Counted from the stretch's first letter, positions 20,082 through 26,926 are shown. The stretch is DNA of 64,000 bases from an uncultured Thermoleophilia bacterium (GCA_963799905.1 CAWCYU010000021.1:19628-83627), one strand, 5' to 3'. Translations and numbers: made by a program. The notes: generated by a model from the letters alone, not told the origin.

Positions 20082-20615
20082 CTACGCAGCGTCGGTCGCG
20101 GCCGCCGGAAGCGCCTCGGCCGGGATGTAGCGCAGATCTGGCAGCGCGCGCCAGCGTTCCTCGAGGCCGAGGCCGTAGCCGGCGAACAGCTCGTCCGGAA
20201 CGGTGAACCCGACGTAGCGCAGGCCGATGTTCTCGACCAGTCGTCGGTAGGGGCGATCGAGCAGCGTCACTGCAGCAATGCTCGCCGGGCCCCGCTCCGC
20301 CAGCGTCCGCGTCAGGTACGCGAGCGTCAGGCCCGTGTCGACGACATCCTCTACGAGCAGCACGTCGCGCCCGTCGATCGGCGTATCGAGGTCCTTGAGC
20401 AGCCGCACCCCGCCGCGCCCGCCGTCGGAGTAGCCCGCGAGCTCGACCACGTCGATCGCGTGCAGGATCGGCAATGCCCGCGACAGGTCTGCGAGAAAGA
20501 CCGTGCTCGACTTCAGCGGCGCGACGAGTAGCGGCTCGCGGCCTGCATAATCGGCGGCGATCTCCGCTCCGAGCTCGCGAACGCGCGCAGCGATCTCGGC
20601 GGCCGAGAGGTACAC
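20082..20615 (-). CDS. hpt: Hypoxanthine phosphoribosyltransferase-like protein (start uncertain)
   Basis: IAARVRELGAEIAADY, PRPP loop VLLVEDVVDTGLTL, and FAGYGLG...RALP. Confidence 0.85.
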   Translation of the reverse strand: MYLSAAEIAARVRELGAEIAADYAGREPLLVAPLKSSTVFLADLSRALPILHAIDVVELAGYSDGGRGGVRLLKDLDTPIDGRDVLLVEDVVDTGLTLAYLTRTLAERGPASIAAVTLLDRPYRRLVENIGLRYVGFTVPDELFAGYGLGLEERWRALPDLRYIPAEALPAAATDAA

Positions 20616-20635
20616 CGCTCCTGCCGGGTCGTGTC

Positions 20636-21004
20636 CTATGACGCGAGCTTCAGTCGGTATCGCTGGGCGAGGCGCTCGAGATCGCGCCGGTAGAAGAGCT
20701 TGACGTTGACCTCCGGGTACTGCTCTCGCAGCTCCCGCAACTTGCGGTTCTTCCGTGTCACGAGCGACTGCTTCATCACCGTCACCTCGATGTAGAGGTT
20801 TTCCTCCGGGAGGAAGAAATCCGGTGTGAAAGCACGAGTGACGCGGCCATCGGTGTCTCGCTCGAGCACGAACGAGGTCGGCTCGTACTCCCACGGGATC
20901 CCGTACCAGTCGAGGATCCTGGCGCACTCGAGCTCGATCCGGTTGGCGAACCGCGGCGGCTCTGCCCCGCGGTAGGCCTGGAACCGGTGGGATTCCGACC
21001 GCAC
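20636..21004 (-). CDS. Small PD-(D/E)XK-fold nuclease-like protein
   Basis: E...WEYEP...FTPDFFL...YIEVT pattern, as in T7 endonuclease I/TnsA-like folds. The Lys of ExK is replaced (EVT). Confidence 0.65.
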   Translation of the reverse strand: MRSESHRFQAYRGAEPPRFANRIELECARILDWYGIPWEYEPTSFVLERDTDGRVTRAFTPDFFLPEENLYIEVTVMKQSLVTRKNRKLRELREQYPEVNVKLFYRRDLERLAQRYRLKLAS

Positions 21005-21010
21005 GATTCA

Positions 21011-21032
21011 ACGGTACTCCCGCACTCGGACG
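21011..21032 (-). promoter_or_regulatory. Putative PafBC-type promoter of the nuclease-hpt operon
   Basis: The minus strand reads CGTCCG-AGTGCGGGAG-TACCGT, 6 nt before GTG 21004. Confidence 0.6.
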
Positions 21033-21080
21033 ACCCCTTCGATTCTTCACCGTCCGACGGCAGCGTCGTAGACTGCTGCC

Positions 21081-21890
21081 ATGTCGAACGGCGCCCGGTC
21101 AGTGTTGCGCATCGCTCACCTCTCCGACCTGCATTGCGGTGAGCAGTACTTCGAGCCGACCTTGCTCGAGCGGGCGATCAGCGAGATCAACGAGCTCGCC
21201 CCCGACATCGTCATCTGCTCGGGCGATCTGACGACGCTGGGTTTCAAGCACGAGTACAAGCTGGCTCGGCAGTACATCGACAAGATCCAGTGCGAATCCC
21301 TGGTCGTGATCCCCGGGAACCACGACTCGCGCAACGTCGGTTACGTGCACTTCGAGGAGCTGTTCGGCCAGCGCAACTCGGTGCTCCGCAAGAGCGGGGT
21401 CACCGTCGTGGCGGTGGACTCGACGGAGCCCGACCTCGATCACGGCCAGATCGGGCGCGGCCGCTACGCCTGGATCGAGCGCGAGTTCGCCGCCGAGCCG
21501 GCCGACCTGAAGATCTTCGTTCTCCACCATCATCTGCTGCCCGTGCCGGGAACCGGCCGCGAGCGCAACGTCGTGTACGACGCCGGCGACGTGATCGAAT
21601 GCCTGCTTCGAGCCGGGGTGCAGCTCGTTCTCTCGGGCCACAAGCACGTCCCGTACGCGTGGCGGCTCGAAAACCTGTTCGTCGTCAACACCGGCACGGT
21701 TTCCTCGCTGCGTTTGCGGGGGAATACGAGACCCTGTTACAACGTGATCGAGATAACGGGGAGCCACGTCGACGTCTGGCGCCACCACCCGTTTCACGGC
21801 GAGGAGCGCATCATCCAGTTCTCGACCGACACCTTCGAATACGAGAAGTACACCGGGCGGATCGAGTCCGAGGTGACGTCGCGCTCGTGA
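21081..21890 (+). CDS. Calcineurin-like metallophosphoesterase (CpdA/Icc-like)
   Basis: HLSDLH, SGDLT, PGNHD, HHH and GHKH motifs. TAGACT -10 lies 6 nt before the ATG. Confidence 0.92.
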   Translation: MSNGARSVLRIAHLSDLHCGEQYFEPTLLERAISEINELAPDIVICSGDLTTLGFKHEYKLARQYIDKIQCESLVVIPGNHDSRNVGYVHFEELFGQRNSVLRKSGVTVVAVDSTEPDLDHGQIGRGRYAWIEREFAAEPADLKIFVLHHHLLPVPGTGRERNVVYDAGDVIECLLRAGVQLVLSGHKHVPYAWRLENLFVVNTGTVSSLRLRGNTRPCYNVIEITGSHVDVWRHHPFHGEERIIQFSTDTFEYEKYTGRIESEVTSRS

Positions 21891-23164
21891 GGGCGATCGC
21901 CGTGATCGACGGGGAGCACTATGCCTCCGTGGTCAGCGATGCGCTCGTCGAGCTGCCCTACGAGATCGTCGCCTGCGTGCTCGTCGGCGGCACCGAGAAG
22001 CTCCACGGCGGGGAAGGATACGGCGTGCCGCTCGCCGCTTCGCTCGAGAGCGCGATCGCGGAGTACGCGCCTGACGTGGTCCTCGACCTCTCGGACGAGC
22101 CCGTGCTCGGCCCACCGGCCCGTCTGAGGCTGGCCGCGAGGACGCTCGTGCTCGGGGTTCCGTACGAGGGAGCCGACTTCAGGTTCGACCCGCCTCGCTT
22201 CGACCCGATCCGGACGCCCTCTGTCGCGGTGATCGGGACAGGCAAGCGGGTCGGGAAGACCGCCGTCACCGGCCACGTGGCTCGCGCCTTTGCACGGCAG
22301 CGAAGCGTGGTCGTGGTCGCGATGGGACGTGGTGGGCCCGCCGAGCCCGAGCTCGTCGAGGTGCGGCCGACGTTGTCCGACCTGCTCGCGCTGTCACGGG
22401 CTGGGCGTCATGCAGCATCCGACCACCTGGAGACAGCGGCGCTCACGGGCCTGCAGACGGTCGGCTGCCGCCGCTGCGGCGGCGGGCTCGCCGGCGCTGT
22501 CGGAACATCCAACGTGCTCGCGGGCGTCCGGCTGGCGGAGGGCCTCGATCCCGACCTGATCGTGCTCGACGGGAGCGGCGCAGCTATCCCGCCGATCGCC
22601 GCCGACCGCCGGATTCTCGTCGTCGGCGCCCACCAGGAAACGGCTGTTGCGGCCGGCTACCTCAACCCGTACCGCGCCTTGCTCGCCGATCTGGTGGTGA
22701 TCACGATGGCGGAGGACGGCCTCGCTCACGGGGCACTCGCCGAGGCATTCCAGGAGCTCGTGCGGCCGAGCGTGCCCATCGTGCGCGTGGTGCTGCGCCC
22801 GCGGCCGCTCGGCGACGTCCGCGGCCGCCGGATCGCGTACTTCGGCACAGCTCCCGCGGCGGGGCACGACCTCATCGCCTCACATCTCGCTGCGGCATAC
22901 GGTGCCGACGTGGCGCACGTCTCCGGCAGGCTGGGCGACCGCGAAGCGCTGCGGACAGAGCTCGCGGGCCTCGACGCCGAGCTGCTCGTGGTCGAGGTCA
23001 AGGCCGCAGCGATCGACGTCGTGGCCGAAGAGGCGGCCAGGCTCGGGATTCCCGTCCTCCTCGCGGCGAACGACATCGTCCCGCTCGCCGACGAGCCCAG
23101 CCTCGACGTCGAGCTCGAGCGTCTGGCCACCGAGGCGATCTCCGCGGCGGCGATCGGCGTATGA
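21887..23164 (+). CDS. cpgS: Cyclic 2,3-diphosphoglycerate synthetase
   Basis: IDGEHY, GGTEKL, DLSDEPV, GTGKRVGKT, AMGRGGP, HAASDH, GCRRCGGG, GSGAAIPP and EVKAAAIDV match archaeal CpgS. GTGA overlap with the upstream gene. Confidence 0.9.
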   Translation: MRAIAVIDGEHYASVVSDALVELPYEIVACVLVGGTEKLHGGEGYGVPLAASLESAIAEYAPDVVLDLSDEPVLGPPARLRLAARTLVLGVPYEGADFRFDPPRFDPIRTPSVAVIGTGKRVGKTAVTGHVARAFARQRSVVVVAMGRGGPAEPELVEVRPTLSDLLALSRAGRHAASDHLETAALTGLQTVGCRRCGGGLAGAVGTSNVLAGVRLAEGLDPDLIVLDGSGAAIPPIAADRRILVVGAHQETAVAAGYLNPYRALLADLVVITMAEDGLAHGALAEAFQELVRPSVPIVRVVLRPRPLGDVRGRRIAYFGTAPAAGHDLIASHLAAAYGADVAHVSGRLGDREALRTELAGLDAELLVVEVKAAAIDVVAEEAARLGIPVLLAANDIVPLADEPSLDVELERLATEAISAAAIGV

Positions 23165-24075
23165 GCGAGCGCCGCTATCTGGCACCGCTGCCGCTCGGCG
23201 GCGACGAGGGACCGCCGTGGTCGAAGGGGCTGATGGCGCGGGCACTCGCGGCGACCGGTTTGGATCCGACTCGAGCCTATGAGCTCGCCCGGCGTGCCGA
23301 CGCGGACATGGTTCAGCGGGGCGCGCTCGAGCTCGACCTCGACCGGCTGGGGGAGATCACCGCGGAGGTGCTCGAGGAACCGGAGTCGGGGCGGACGATG
23401 AGGCGCCTGCGCCGCCTGCAGGCGTTGCAGCATCTCGAGCTTCCCGTCGTCTTGCTCGTGGGTGGGGCCACGGGCACCGGCAAGTCGACGCTCGCGACCG
23501 AGGCGGCGCACCGCCTCGGGATCACCAGGGTGACATCGACGGACTTCATCCGGCAGACGATGCGCGCGTTCTTCTCCCGCGAGTTCATGCCGTCCGTGCA
23601 CTACTCGAGCTTCGACGCCGAGCTTGCGTTGAGCAGGGCGGACGAGGATCTCTCGGGCGATGCGGGACTGCTGGGGTTCCTCGACCAGACCAGGAACGTG
23701 CTCGTCGGCGTCGAGGCGGCGATCGACCGCTCGCTGACGGAGGGCTGGTCGATGGTGCTCGAGGGCGTCCACATCGTTCCGGGCATGATCGCCGTCGATC
23801 GGGCGGACGCACTCGTCGTTCAGTGCCTTGTCGCGATCAGCGACGAGCACGCTCATCGCAGCCACTTCTGGGTGCGTGACGCATCGACGGAGGGCCTCCG
23901 TCCGCTCGAGAAATACCTCGAAGGCATGCCGGAGATCCGGATGATCCAGGACGTGCTGCTCGAGCGGGCACGGCGGTTCGACGTGCCCGTGATCGAGAAC
24001 ACCTCTCTCGACGAGGCGATCGGCCAGGTGCTCGACCTCGTGCTGACGGGCGCCGAGCGGCTGGCCCGCGTCTGA
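23161..24075 (+). CDS. pgk2: 2-phosphoglycerate kinase (ATP-cone-like + P-loop)
   Basis: PWSKGLMARAL, GGATGTGKST, STDFIRQTMR and EGVHIVPG. ATGA overlap with cpgS. Confidence 0.88.
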   Translation: MSERRYLAPLPLGGDEGPPWSKGLMARALAATGLDPTRAYELARRADADMVQRGALELDLDRLGEITAEVLEEPESGRTMRRLRRLQALQHLELPVVLLVGGATGTGKSTLATEAAHRLGITRVTSTDFIRQTMRAFFSREFMPSVHYSSFDAELALSRADEDLSGDAGLLGFLDQTRNVLVGVEAAIDRSLTEGWSMVLEGVHIVPGMIAVDRADALVVQCLVAISDEHAHRSHFWVRDASTEGLRPLEKYLEGMPEIRMIQDVLLERARRFDVPVIENTSLDEAIGQVLDLVLTGAERLARV

Positions 24076-24081
24076 GCGGGC

Positions 24082-24831
24082 TCACACTGCCGGGCGGGCG
24101 TACGCATACCACCCGGCGGGCGCGAGACCGAGCGTCTCGTACAGCCCCCCTGCCGTGACGTTGCGCTCCTGAACCGCGAGCAGGGTGCGCCGGGCACCGC
24201 GCTCCGACGCCCACTCCGCGATTGCCGCGACCGCACGTGTGGCGACCCGACGCCGCCTCGCTGCCGCCGTCGTTGCGATGCACTCGAGGACGAGCGTCTC
24301 CTCGACGAGAACGCCGAGCGCGGTCCCGACCATGGTGCCGGCGTCCGCCACCTGCGCGAACACTGCGTGCTCGAGCCGCGCGAGGAGCGCTGCAACGACG
24401 GCCCGCTCTCGCGCCGTCCGGCGTGGTTCGACAGCGCACCAGGTTGCGAGCCACTCCTCCGACGCGTGGCTCGTGAGTGAGACGTCCTCGGTCGGCCCGG
24501 CAGGCGGGAGCGGCCCGGCGAGCAGGAGCGTGCGATCGATCCCGGTTGCCCAGCCGCGCGCTGCGAGCCGCTCGCGGAGCCGGGGCGGCCATGTCGCTCC
24601 CGTGAGCTGAAGCCAGGGTGTCAAGCCGCGTCGCGCGTACACCTCGAGGGAGCGCGTGAGCAGATGATCGAGCCCCGCGTCGTCGCTGTCGGTGCCGTTC
24701 CCGTGCGTGAGCACCGAGTTCGCCCGGCGCGTGACGCCGTCGTCGAGCCGGGCCGTCCACGGCCCTATCGCCACCGTCTCCCGGGGTCGCCATGCCTGCT
24801 GGAGCACGAGGTCGAGGGCGGCTTGCTCCAC
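24082..24831 (-). CDS. GNAT-family N-acetyltransferase
   Basis: QAW...GVTRRANSV N-terminus, ARRRRVA acetyl-CoA loop and NVTAGGLYETLG. Confidence 0.82.
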   Translation of the reverse strand: MEQAALDLVLQQAWRPRETVAIGPWTARLDDGVTRRANSVLTHGNGTDSDDAGLDHLLTRSLEVYARRGLTPWLQLTGATWPPRLRERLAARGWATGIDRTLLLAGPLPPAGPTEDVSLTSHASEEWLATWCAVEPRRTARERAVVAALLARLEHAVFAQVADAGTMVGTALGVLVEETLVLECIATTAAARRRRVATRAVAAIAEWASERGARRTLLAVQERNVTAGGLYETLGLAPAGWYAYARPAV

Positions 24832-24855
24832 CGTCCTCACTGTAGAGTTGGTCGC

Positions 24856-25155
24856 ATGGTCACCGAGAACGATGTCGTCGAAGCATTGCACGGCGTGGAG
24901 GATCCGGAGCTCGGAATGGATATCGTCGAGATCGGCCTCTTCTACGAGGCCCAGATCGACGGCCCGAGCGTCAAGATCATCCACTCGCTCACCTCGATGG
25001 GATGCCCGGCCGGGCCGATGATCCAGGAAGGCATCCACGATGCAGTCGCCGCTCTCCCAGGTGTCGAGCGCGTCGAGGTGGAGCTGACGTTCGATCCGCC
25101 GTGGACGCCCGACCTCATGTCGGACGACGCGAAGTTCATTCTCGGCTTCGGATAG
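24856..25155 (+). CDS. Fe-S cluster assembly factor SufT (DUF59)
   Basis: VEDPELGMDIVEIGL, TSMGCP and FDPPWTPDLMS. Confidence 0.92.
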   Translation: MVTENDVVEALHGVEDPELGMDIVEIGLFYEAQIDGPSVKIIHSLTSMGCPAGPMIQEGIHDAVAALPGVERVEVELTFDPPWTPDLMSDDAKFILGFG

Positions 25156-25258
25156 GCAGTCTCGAGCCGTTTCGTGGGCTGGTGTCTGAGCATGGGTCTG
25201 AGATCCTGCGCCGCCGTCGCCCGAGCCCAGGTACCTCACTGCCTCACGGGCTGAACTG

Positions 25259-26926
25259 GTGGGAGGGGCGCACCGGCTGACGCCCTCGACAGGCTCGGAT
25301 AGATTCACCGCTGTGCTGATCTGGGTTCTGGCGGTTCTATCGGGACTTGTGATCGCTGCCTGTGTGTTGGTCGCACGGACACTTGTTCTCGCGCCGAGGC
25401 CCTCGTTCACCTCGGGAGCGGTGAGAGCAATCACGCTCATTGTGCTTGCGGCGGTTGCTGGCATCGTCCCAAGCCAAGCAGCGACGAGTTCTGGGATTTC
25501 GATCAGTATGTTCCGGGCGGCTCCGATTGTGAGGCCGGTGGCGATTGCCGTCGAGCCGGGTGGGGGCGTTTTGTTCGCGAGCGAGGGCGCTGGATCCGTG
25601 GGAAGGATCACGATGTCGGGCGCCGTGACAGCTCACGCTGTCTCAGCGGTGTCCGCGTCGGGCGGGGTGATGGTTCGCCCCGGCGGAGCTCCCTTGTTGG
25701 CCAGAGGTGGCTTGGAGCTCGGGCAAATGATTTCTGAGAGAGCACGTCGGGCCCTCTCGACCTCGAGCGCCGTTGAGGTTGCGGCCGGCCCGGGTAACAC
25801 GCTGTGGTTTACGAACGGGGGTGAGACCGTCGGCCGGATCACAACGACGGGAAAGGTGGCCGTGTTCTCCGAGCCCCAGCACCTCCGCGGCACTTATGGG
25901 ATCACGCGTGGGCCAGACGGCGCCATGTGGTTCACGAACTACCTCGCGAGTTCGATCGGACGCATTGACGCGACCGGTGCCATCGTGACGTTTACCGCGC
26001 CCTGTGTCCGATATCCGATGGGCATCACCGCTGGTGCCGACGGGGCGATGTGGTTCGCGGACGACTCAGGATCGATCGGACGAATCACCAGCGACGGCAA
26101 CATCCGATGCTACGGCGACGTCGCACGGGTCGGCCACCCGGGTGCGATCATCGCCGGCGGTGACGGTGCGCTGTGGGCCGCCGACCGGAGTGGTTCGATC
26201 GTGCGAGTTACGACACGGGGTGTCGTGACGCGCTACACGACGGCCGGGATGCGTTTTCCGGACAGGATCGCCGCGGGACCGAACCGCGCTGTGTGGTTCA
26301 CCGATTATCTCGCGGACGCGGTCGGAAGGATCGGTGGATCTGGCCGCCCAACCAAGCCCTCTAACCCTCGCCCGCTGCCACGAGTCACGCTCCTCTCGGA
26401 CTCGGCTGCCGCGTCGATCGTCTTCGACACCGGCGCGAAGTCGCTCCTCGCGAACGGCATCGACCTGTTCCTCGAGCCGGGCCAGGGCCGTACGCTCGGC
26501 CCCCAACCGCTCGGCGTGACGGGGCCGCCGACGCTGCCGGATCTCATAACCCAGCTCGGGAGCAGGCTCGGACAGACGGTCGTCGTGGACATCGGCCACA
26601 ACGACACCTACTCAGACCGGTACGCATCGGATATCGACGCTGCGCTGGCAGCACTCCATGCTGCGGGCGTGAAGCGTGTCCTTTGGACCACGCTCCACGT
26701 GACGACGAACCACTGGGGCTTCACCGCAATGAATGACGCGGTCGTCGCGGCAGCAGCACAGCACCCGGAACTCACGATTGTCGACTGGAATGCGTATGCC
26801 GCGCCGCACCCCGAGTGGTTCCAACGCGACGGCGTGCACCTCATCGGTGACGGCCCCCGCGCCCTCGCCCGATGTATCCACGGGAGCCTCATAGGACTCG
26901 GCGTCCCTCTAACCGCACGAAGCTGA
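25259..26926 (+). CDS. Secreted Vgb-like beta-propeller fused to SGNH hydrolase domain (start probably downstream, about 25310-25430)
   Basis: Repeats GITxGxDGAMWF...IGRI. The C-terminal SDS, GHND and DGVH are SGNH motifs. Confidence 0.8.
   Translation: MGGAHRLTPSTGSDRFTAVLIWVLAVLSGLVIAACVLVARTLVLAPRPSFTSGAVRAITLIVLAAVAGIVPSQAATSSGISISMFRAAPIVRPVAIAVEPGGGVLFASEGAGSVGRITMSGAVTAHAVSAVSASGGVMVRPGGAPLLARGGLELGQMISERARRALSTSSAVEVAAGPGNTLWFTNGGETVGRITTTGKVAVFSEPQHLRGTYGITRGPDGAMWFTNYLASSIGRIDATGAIVTFTAPCVRYPMGITAGADGAMWFADDSGSIGRITSDGNIRCYGDVARVGHPGAIIAGGDGALWAADRSGSIVRVTTRGVVTRYTTAGMRFPDRIAAGPNRAVWFTDYLADAVGRIGGSGRPTKPSNPRPLPRVTLLSDSAAASIVFDTGAKSLLANGIDLFLEPGQGRTLGPQPLGVTGPPTLPDLITQLGSRLGQTVVVDIGHNDTYSDRYASDIDAALAALHAAGVKRVLWTTLHVTTNHWGFTAMNDAVVAAAAQHPELTIVDWNAYAAPHPEWFQRDGVHLIGDGPRALARCIHGSLIGLGVPLTARS

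Follow-up and report, generated by a model that had tools for sequence, protein, structure and literature searches.

In a 64,000-nucleotide stretch of DNA from an uncultured Thermoleophilia bacterium (GCA_963799905.1, CAWCYU010000021.1:19628-83627), referred to here as the window, three genes were found at 21081-24075. They encode a metallophosphoesterase (MPE; gene 1, protein P0001), a homologue of CpgS, the synthetase of cyclic 2,3-diphosphoglycerate (cDPG; gene 2, P0002), and a homologue of 2-phosphoglycerate kinase (2PGK; gene 3, P0003). The three genes form one operon, and the host is an uncultured bacterium of the order Gaiellales (class Thermoleophilia). The reading that we favour, and consider fairly probable as a whole, is that of an operon for cDPG synthesis in which the MPE would serve as the breakdown arm. 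The locus represents a known pathway in bacterial form, together with a third, conserved component of which the literature gives no description. An earlier note on this DNA had claimed a complete cDPG operon; the claim held for the synthesis genes, and the first gene, which had stayed uninterpreted, is now recognised as an MPE tied to cpgS.

Results

Gene 2 encodes a CpgS homologue

It was found by phmmer that P0002 matched the cDPG synthetase (cDPGS) of Methanothermus fervidus (PDB 8ORU/8ORK) with an E value of 8.4e-88, query residues 3-403 being aligned with 8ORU residues 6-435. A further deposited cDPGS, 9SXB, was matched with an E value of 5.6e-82, and the identity of P0002 to archaeal CpgS was ~40-45%. 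The comparison with archaeal CpgS that the earlier note had proposed has thus been made, and gene 2 came out of it as a genuine homologue. All six motifs on which the earlier note had based its identification (DGEHY, GGTEK, DLSDEP, GTGKRVGKT, HAASD and GCRRCGGG) were present in the gene 2 translation.

In the M. fervidus enzyme, 2,3-diphosphoglycerate (2,3-DPG), Mg and ATP are held by E45, K46, K145, R146, K149, T150 and D208, and ATP is contacted by E305, P335, T353, E404 and K406; the substrate site of each protomer is completed by E45 and K46 from the N-terminal domain of its partner, and Mg is liganded by D208 (PMC10690619). When these ligand residues were mapped by counting along the HMMER alignment, the equivalents of all seven residues of the first set and of E305, T353, E404 and K406 were identical in P0002. 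The Walker A motif GTGKRVGKT at P0002 residues 117-125 aligned with GTGKRIGKT, the columns of K145, R146, K149 and T150 being invariant, and E37 and K38 (in GGTEK) and D179 (in HAASD) of P0002 aligned exactly with E45, K46 and D208. P335 could not be mapped to one column; its FRPKP context was present as LRPRP in P0002. Most of the mapped ligand residues fell on invariant columns when ten CpgS from archaea and bacteria were aligned.

A Pfam scan of P0002 returned just a weak CbiA match and NCBIfam returned none, the libraries used being without a CpgS model; the database copy of P0002 carries the Pfam family PF27272 (CpgS_N). With its mapped ligand residues kept, gene 2 can be assigned on solid sequence grounds as a true cDPG synthetase homologue.

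Gene 3 encodes a kinase of the 2PGK family

P0003 matched two NCBIfam models, NF003259 with an E value of 5e-76 and 256 bits (profile positions 16-290 of 306; curated cut-off of 343) and NF008994 with an E value of 6e-80 and 269 bits (curated cut-off of 603). Its P-loop was GGATGTGKST, and it was 30% identical (E 4e-47) to the kinase overlapping cpgS in Thermococcus. A PDB sequence search with the gene 3 product gave no match. It was observed that a 2PGK homologue lay directly 3' of cpgS in all Gaiellales loci and in other Actinomycetota, Thermococcus, Asgard archaea, Cloacimonadota and others. The same adjacent pair in Pyrococcus yayanosii, PYCH_14390-400, has been named as cDPG synthesis genes (PMC4890121).

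From its sequence, gene 3 is solidly placed as a homologue of the 2PGK-family kinases. The earlier identification of the third gene as 2PGK stood as regards the full-length family match, the P-loop and the adjacency to cpgS, and fell short as regards the scores, which were under the curated cut-offs.

Gene 1 encodes a metallophosphoesterase of a separate subfamily

P0001 covered the whole Pfam Metallophos profile (PF00149) with an E value of 6e-20. In the alignment of 27 orthologues, the MPE motifs SDxH, GD, GNHD, HHH and GHxH were invariant, and so were residues specific to the subfamily, namely R84, S114/D118 (DSSxPD), HHHxxPxPxxGRER including R162, and R213. The conserved basic residues of the subfamily would suit a polyanionic substrate. 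The AlphaFold model of P0001 had a pLDDT of 90.3, and its nearest solved folds were GpdQ and Rv0805, with TM values of 0.71-0.74 (0.74 for GpdQ) and 17-19% identity; the same two proteins were the best PDB sequence matches (E 1e-9), and overall their identity to P0001 was 17-20%. A Protein Atlas look-up of P0001 yielded generic metallophosphoesterase clusters only.

P0001 is a candidate cDPG hydrolase or 2,3-DPG phosphatase, the tie to cDPG hydrolysis being one of association: co-occurrence with cpgS, synteny in both domains and presence in methanogens. Hydrolysis of cDPG is a plausible reaction for it, falling a little short of probable. To our knowledge, cDPG hydrolase activity has no assigned gene; the enzyme of Methanothermobacter thermautotrophicus was reportedly described by Sastry et al. 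in 1992 and, as membrane-bound, by van Alebeek et al. in 1994.

The MPE gene is tied to cpgS across genomes

A phylum sample of 401 genomes drawn evenly across Actinomycetota was searched with thresholds of E <= 1e-20 for CpgS and E <= 1e-35 for the MPE. The tallies include five unpublished genomes (G041, G088, G128, G160 and G358), on which no individual claim rests. It was found that cpgS was present in 227 genomes and the MPE subfamily likewise in 227. When the two lists were compared by eye, both genes were present in 223 genomes, cpgS alone in 4, the MPE alone in 4, and neither in 170. The family-level tallies of the two genes were near-identical, and the MPE tree reproduced the subclades of the CpgS tree.

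The order MPE-cpgS-2pgk was kept in 80/80 Gaiellales loci, and the arrangement recurred across many named metagenome-assembled genomes (MAGs). At 20 distant Actinomycetota loci, with a CpgS identity of 41-50%, the MPE gene adjoined cpgS in 16 and 2pgk did so in 13. All 31 sampled genomes of Rubrobacteraceae had MPE-cpgS, and an unlinked 2PGK homologue was present in the five that were checked for it (5/5). The link of the MPE with cpgS is no less tight than that of 2pgk.

A second architecture was also observed, in which cpgS and 2pgk, sometimes with a small gene, were followed by a ~500-aa tandem duplication of the MPE subfamily. Its carriers were four Thermococcus species, Theionarchaea, Natronoplasma, an Asgard archaeon, Cloacimonadota, Bradymonadales, Aminicenantes and a Eubacteriales MAG, and the tandem proteins were 32-33% identical to P0001 over the full length (E 2e-39 to 5e-48). 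In the tandem genes of Cloacimonadota (L110:7733-9232) and the Asgard archaeon (L108:7367-8902), the C-terminal copy was degenerate. The Cloacimonadota copy had SDxH changed to SNTF, GD to GG, GNHD to AGRD and GHxH to GTSS, and the Asgard copy had motif III alone altered, to GHRD. Because the C-terminal copy is degenerate, the sequences suggest that the tandem protein is a pseudo-dimer with a single active site; by extension, the bacterial enzyme, with its one domain, would work as a homodimer.

Neither the MPE gene nor 2pgk was found within ~8 kb of cpgS in the Methanobacteriaceae and Methanopyri sampled. Unlinked MPE orthologues were present in 5/5 of these genomes, with 41-48% identity and E values of 1e-58 to 1e-66, and unlinked 2PGK was present in the same five. 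Some methanogens had two or three MPE paralogues, as in G444 (Methanobacteriaceae; C1:2203691-2204383, 1107645-1108316 and 2251881-2252606), where one of them had an in-frame TAA.

Several further neighbours of cpgS were noted. On a Bipolaricaulota contig (L109:6352-7908), cpgS was followed by an overlapping gene for a cofactor-independent phosphoglycerate mutase, with no 2pgk or MPE gene following; a 304-aa gene two genes 3' of cpgS there was considered as a 2PGK and rejected as unrelated. The neighbour in Thermococcus (L107:3467-4609) was a mannosylglycerate-synthase-type glycosyltransferase, and that in the Asgard archaeon (L108:4106-4876) a GDPD glycerophosphodiesterase. In Cloacimonadota, a CBS-domain gene (L110:7304-7729) lay between 2pgk and the tandem MPE gene.

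Distribution and history of the operon

CpgS homologues numbered at least 8000 among non-redundant database proteins, and 268 clusters at 50% identity were matched with E <= 1e-30. The named bacterial carriers were Acidimicrobiales, Rubrobacteraceae (including the cultured Rubrobacter taiwanensis), Coriobacteriia, Aquicultoria, Bacillota, Bipolaricaulota, Cloacimonadota, Bradymonadales, Aminicenantes and Anaerolineae. The named archaeal carriers were Methanobacteriaceae (including the mesophilic Methanobrevibacter and Methanosphaera), Methanopyri, Thermococcus, Theionarchaea, Natronoplasma and Asgard archaea. Records of NCBI and JGI already auto-label bacterial proteins as "(cyclic) 2,3-diphosphoglycerate synthetase"; a literature search found no paper reporting or discussing a cDPG pathway in bacteria. 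Within the genus of the window, CpgS homologues were present in 22 of 24 genomes. In one same-genus MAG (G011:C26:131921-133178), the cpgS match was in pieces with an internal TGA, a sign of a decaying copy or else of a frameshift or an error in sequencing.

A maximum likelihood tree of 81 CpgS sequences, the root of which is not known, placed the window CpgS in a Gaiellales clade with 100% support. This clade lay within a 98%-supported group with other Thermoleophilia clades and Rubrobacteraceae. Archaeal CpgS were interleaved with bacterial ones, Bacillota being sister to Thermococci and the Natronoplasma sequence lying inside a Cloacimonadota/Bradymonadales/Aminicenantes group, and most clades in the sampled family were bacterial. 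The label "archaeal-type" that had been given to the operon is therefore misleading: the family is widespread in bacteria, and the term reflects the place of discovery.

The third-position GC (GC3) of the three operon genes was 0.87-0.90, compared with 0.86-0.88 in the nearby ccmF and M23 peptidase genes. This agrees with the native codon usage described in the earlier note, and its view that the operon is old in the lineage is upheld by the supported Gaiellales clade and the synteny in the 80 related loci. A recent horizontal acquisition of the operon from a methanogen or another archaeon is very improbable, as only the discovery history of the pathway in archaea speaks for such a transfer. 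Against it stand the GC3 and codon use shared with the neighbour genes, the synteny, and the position of the window CpgS with Thermoleophilia and Rubrobacteraceae, far from the archaeal clades. A recent import was rejected on these three grounds, and the inheritance of the operon, as judged from the sequences, is vertical-looking.

Locus layout and start of gene 2

The source genome is a MAG of 3.57 Mb and 78% completeness, and the GC content of the window was 66-71%. The features of the locus are collected in Table 1. The three genes were co-directional and joined by GTGA and ATGA overlaps, in full agreement with the earlier note. On its left the operon was flanked by a divergent unit ending near 21050, and on its right by a convergent gene.

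Table 1. Features of the cpgS operon and its surroundings (positions in the window)
Feature	Position	Strand	Remarks
TAGACT, -10-like hexamer	21069-21074	+	6 nt 5' of the gene 1 ATG at 21081
Gene 1, metallophosphoesterase (P0001)	21081-21890	+	269 aa, ATG start
GTGA overlap, gene 2 start and gene 1 stop	21887-21890	+	4 nt
Gene 2, CpgS homologue (P0002)	21887-23164	+	425 aa, GTG start
ATGA overlap, gene 3 start and gene 2 stop	23161-23164	+	4 nt
Gene 3, 2PGK homologue (P0003)	23161-24075	+	304 aa
GNAT acetyltransferase gene	24082-25611	-	convergent; right flank of the operon

The database call of gene 2 has 420 aa (P0004), which fits a GTG at 21902; with this start, the GTGA overlap would vanish. 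The start at 21887 appears the likelier of the two, because many orthologues have been annotated with 425 aa and the opening strand of the archaeal enzyme is matched in the alignment by P0002 residues 2-6.

Promoter and upstream region

The earlier note had placed a TAGACT promoter before gene 1, and the hexamer recurred in the orthologous loci. A hexamer of the class TA[GC]A[CA]T was found 4-9 nt 5' of an in-frame gene-1 start in 80 of 83 Gaiellales-type loci, with a spacing of 6 nt in 50 and 7 nt in 22, which fits a leaderless transcript. The background expectation was 0.02 per 75-nt window, and by this sequence measure the conservation of the -10-like hexamer exceeds chance. In distant Actinomycetota, the hexamer preceded an in-frame start in just 1 of 42 loci. 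A scan of the locus for E. coli-type -35/-10 promoters found nothing, which is what a promoter made up of a -10 element alone would give; a scan for intrinsic terminators was likewise negative. The operon transcript is probably leaderless and started from a -10-only promoter, the conservation argument being limited to Gaiellales.

The plus strand at 21051-21074 also reads CGTCCG-N12-TAGACT just 5' of gene 1. The CGTCCG hexamer is probably there by chance, because it was not conserved in the orthologous loci. On the minus strand at 21010-21036, CGTCCG-N10-TACCGT was observed 5 nt before a GTG at 21004 that starts a 122-aa open reading frame (ORF). The core of this minus-strand element, CTCGGACG on the plus strand, recurred 5' of the operon in most orthologous Gaiellales loci. 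A 322-aa ORF spans 20082-21050. Because its GC3 was merely 0.66, this region probably holds the 122-aa gene and a phosphoribosyltransferase gene in another frame, rather than a single gene.

Discussion

Proposed pathway

In the proposed pathway, the gene 3 kinase would convert 2-phosphoglycerate and ATP to 2,3-DPG, and CpgS would use a second ATP to close both phosphates into the cyclic pyrophosphate cDPG. The mechanism given for the M. fervidus enzyme (PMC10690619) is assigned to the bacterial CpgS because the residues are conserved. In this mechanism, CpgS would act as a dimer with a P-loop kinase domain, the substrate site of which is completed by Glu and Lys of the partner protomer's N-terminal domain. 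The gamma-phosphate of ATP would be transferred to the 2-phosphate, which would then be attacked by the 3-phosphate with release of phosphate and closure of the ring. Gene 1, as a binuclear MPE of the GpdQ/Rv0805 structural class, would most likely form the catabolic arm, taking cDPG to 2,3-DPG or 2,3-DPG to monophosphoglycerate. A cDPG pool would then be both built up and drawn on by the products of this one operon.

We consider it probable, from the conserved residues and gene pairing, that cDPG is the product in bacteria. The wider proposal is that the MPE subfamily is the cDPG hydrolase and forms, with 2PGK and CpgS, a conserved three-enzyme cycle in Actinomycetota, other bacterial phyla and archaea. 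It is offered tentatively.

Weighing of the readings

A number of points weigh against the reading as a cDPG operon. It is stated that cDPG is exclusive to hyperthermophilic methanogens (PMC10690619), and no assay of a bacterial CpgS was found in the literature. The solutes of cultured R. xylanophilus and R. radiotolerans, which are presumed carriers of the cpgS genes, were reported as trehalose, mannosylglycerate and DIP, not cDPG (PMC3505630). P0003 scored below both curated NCBIfam equivalog cut-offs for 2PGK, and the family also matches Thermus, Deinococcus, Haloferax and Sulfolobus, which are not known cDPG makers. Because of these two observations, the assignment of gene 3 as 2PGK rests on context. 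As the counts of cpgS and the MPE come from related genomes, their independence is overstated. If a synthetase and its hydrolase are co-expressed from the same operon, post-translational control would be needed to avoid futile cycling. Lastly, the cDPG hydrolase of Methanothermobacter is membrane-bound, and inhibited by K+ and phosphate (Roberts review, PMC1224877), whereas P0001 showed no obvious membrane-spanning stretch when read by eye without a predictor.

The synthesis genes might act as proposed while the MPE is something other than a cDPG hydrolase, for example a 2,3-DPG phosphatase feeding carbon back into glycolysis, or a proofreading or salvage diesterase acting on some other small phosphate ester with a level linked to the pathway. 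GpdQ and Rv0805, which come closest to it in fold, are diesterases of promiscuous specificity, and cleavage of a cyclic pyrophosphate is not known for any relative with a solved structure. The Asgard GDPD and the Bipolaricaulota phosphoglycerate mutase show that various phosphoglycerate and phosphoester enzymes cluster with cpgS; the membrane location of the methanogen hydrolase points in the same direction. However, the co-occurrence was specific to cpgS, with 8 discordant genomes against 223 with both genes and 170 with neither, and 2PGK-like genes were more widespread. A generic diesterase would not be expected to track cpgS through two domains and two gene architectures, and we regard a different role of the MPE as unlikely. 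A shift in substrate of the bacterial CpgS and 2PGK, leading to a different phosphorylated or cyclic product, would agree with the limited identity to the archaeal enzymes (only ~40-45% for CpgS and 30% for 2PGK), with the scores of the 2PGK under the curated cut-offs, and with the presence of a mevalonate-3-phosphate 5-kinase among the relatives of its family. Such a shift is nevertheless improbable, since every mappable residue contacting 2,3-DPG, Mg or ATP was kept and the kinase-synthetase pairing was the same in archaea and bacteria.

With the same chemistry, bacterial cDPG might also be a low-abundance, tightly turned-over phosphate/energy buffer or regulatory molecule, and not a bulk solute. 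The co-inheritance of a synthetase with a hydrolase-type enzyme speaks for this, as do the carriers, among which mesophilic or soil lineages and gut methanogens prevail over thermophiles, and the lack of cDPG in the Rubrobacter solute surveys. The M. fervidus enzyme is reported to be reversible and to yield ATP, and cDPG has been discussed as a carbon/phosphate store (PMC1224877). On the other hand, no receptor, riboswitch or regulator was linked to the operon within the window, and the published surveys were aimed at known solutes and could miss cDPG or the inducing conditions. The cost of two ATP per molecule is high for a signal, though not prohibitive. A role of this kind is somewhat unlikely, while deserving some weight.

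Physiological role and significance

The earlier note had suggested that cDPG would be an osmo-, thermo- or desiccation protectant or a phosphate/energy store. A bulk-solute role in bacteria is doubtful, because the reports on the solutes of cultured Rubrobacter list no cDPG. Within the reading of the locus as a cDPG operon, we consider cDPG more likely to be a regulated phosphate/carbon/energy store, or a solute that appears under stress, than a constitutive bulk osmolyte, because most carriers are non-thermophilic and the reported Rubrobacter solutes do not include cDPG. This is the least certain part of the interpretation.

The literature and extremolyte biotechnology treat cDPG as exclusive to hyperthermophilic methanogens. 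The genes for its synthesis turned out to be common among Actinomycetota of soils and sediments, cultured Rubrobacter among these, and in further bacterial phyla as well. Should cDPG indeed be made by bacteria, its presumed part in thermoadaptation would have to be reconsidered, and a large set of mesophilic enzymes would be open for production. In the opposite case, thousands of database annotations would be in error, and the genes would encode an activity yet to be discovered. If the three-enzyme cycle is real, cDPG would be a widespread, mostly mesophilic metabolite, with the cycle present in more than half of the sampled Actinomycetota. Provided that bacteria make cDPG, the conserved MPE also offers a direct and cheap test for the breakdown enzyme, which is believed to be without an assigned gene.

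Comparison with known systems

The cDPGS of M. fervidus (8ORK, apo; 8ORU, with ADP/Mg/2,3-DPG; De Rose et al. 2023, PMC10690619) has the same two-domain layout as P0002. The two proteins share GTGKRxGKT, GGTEK, HAASD, GCRRCGGG and the ATP-contacting Glu/Thr/Lys. In contrast, P0002 is ~35 residues shorter with several loops absent, and it comes from a mesophilic soil bacterium of high GC content. The P0002 gene sits with 2pgk and the MPE gene, whereas the cpgS of the sampled methanogens does not (M. fervidus itself was not checked). The gene of M. fervidus cDPGS was reportedly cloned by Matussek et al. in 1998, and the 2PGK of this organism is said to have been described by Lehmacher and Hensel in 1994. 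P0003 belongs over its full length to the same family as M. fervidus 2PGK (NF003259 and NF008994), with the P-loop in common, and its position next to cpgS is as in the Thermococcales pair. The Thermococcus kinase has an N-terminal ATP-cone, whereas none was detected by Pfam in P0003.

GpdQ of Enterobacter aerogenes (PDB 2DXL/3D03), a glycerophosphodiesterase, and Rv0805 of M. tuberculosis (2HY1/3IB7), a cyclic-nucleotide phosphodiesterase, have the same binuclear MPE motifs as P0001, and both act on small molecules. P0001 differs from them in forming part of a distinct subfamily, which is marked by invariant residues of its own and by a distribution linked to cpgS. As for the cDPG hydrolase of methanogens, the lineages that make cDPG carry gene 1 orthologues, and its reaction is the one proposed for gene 1.

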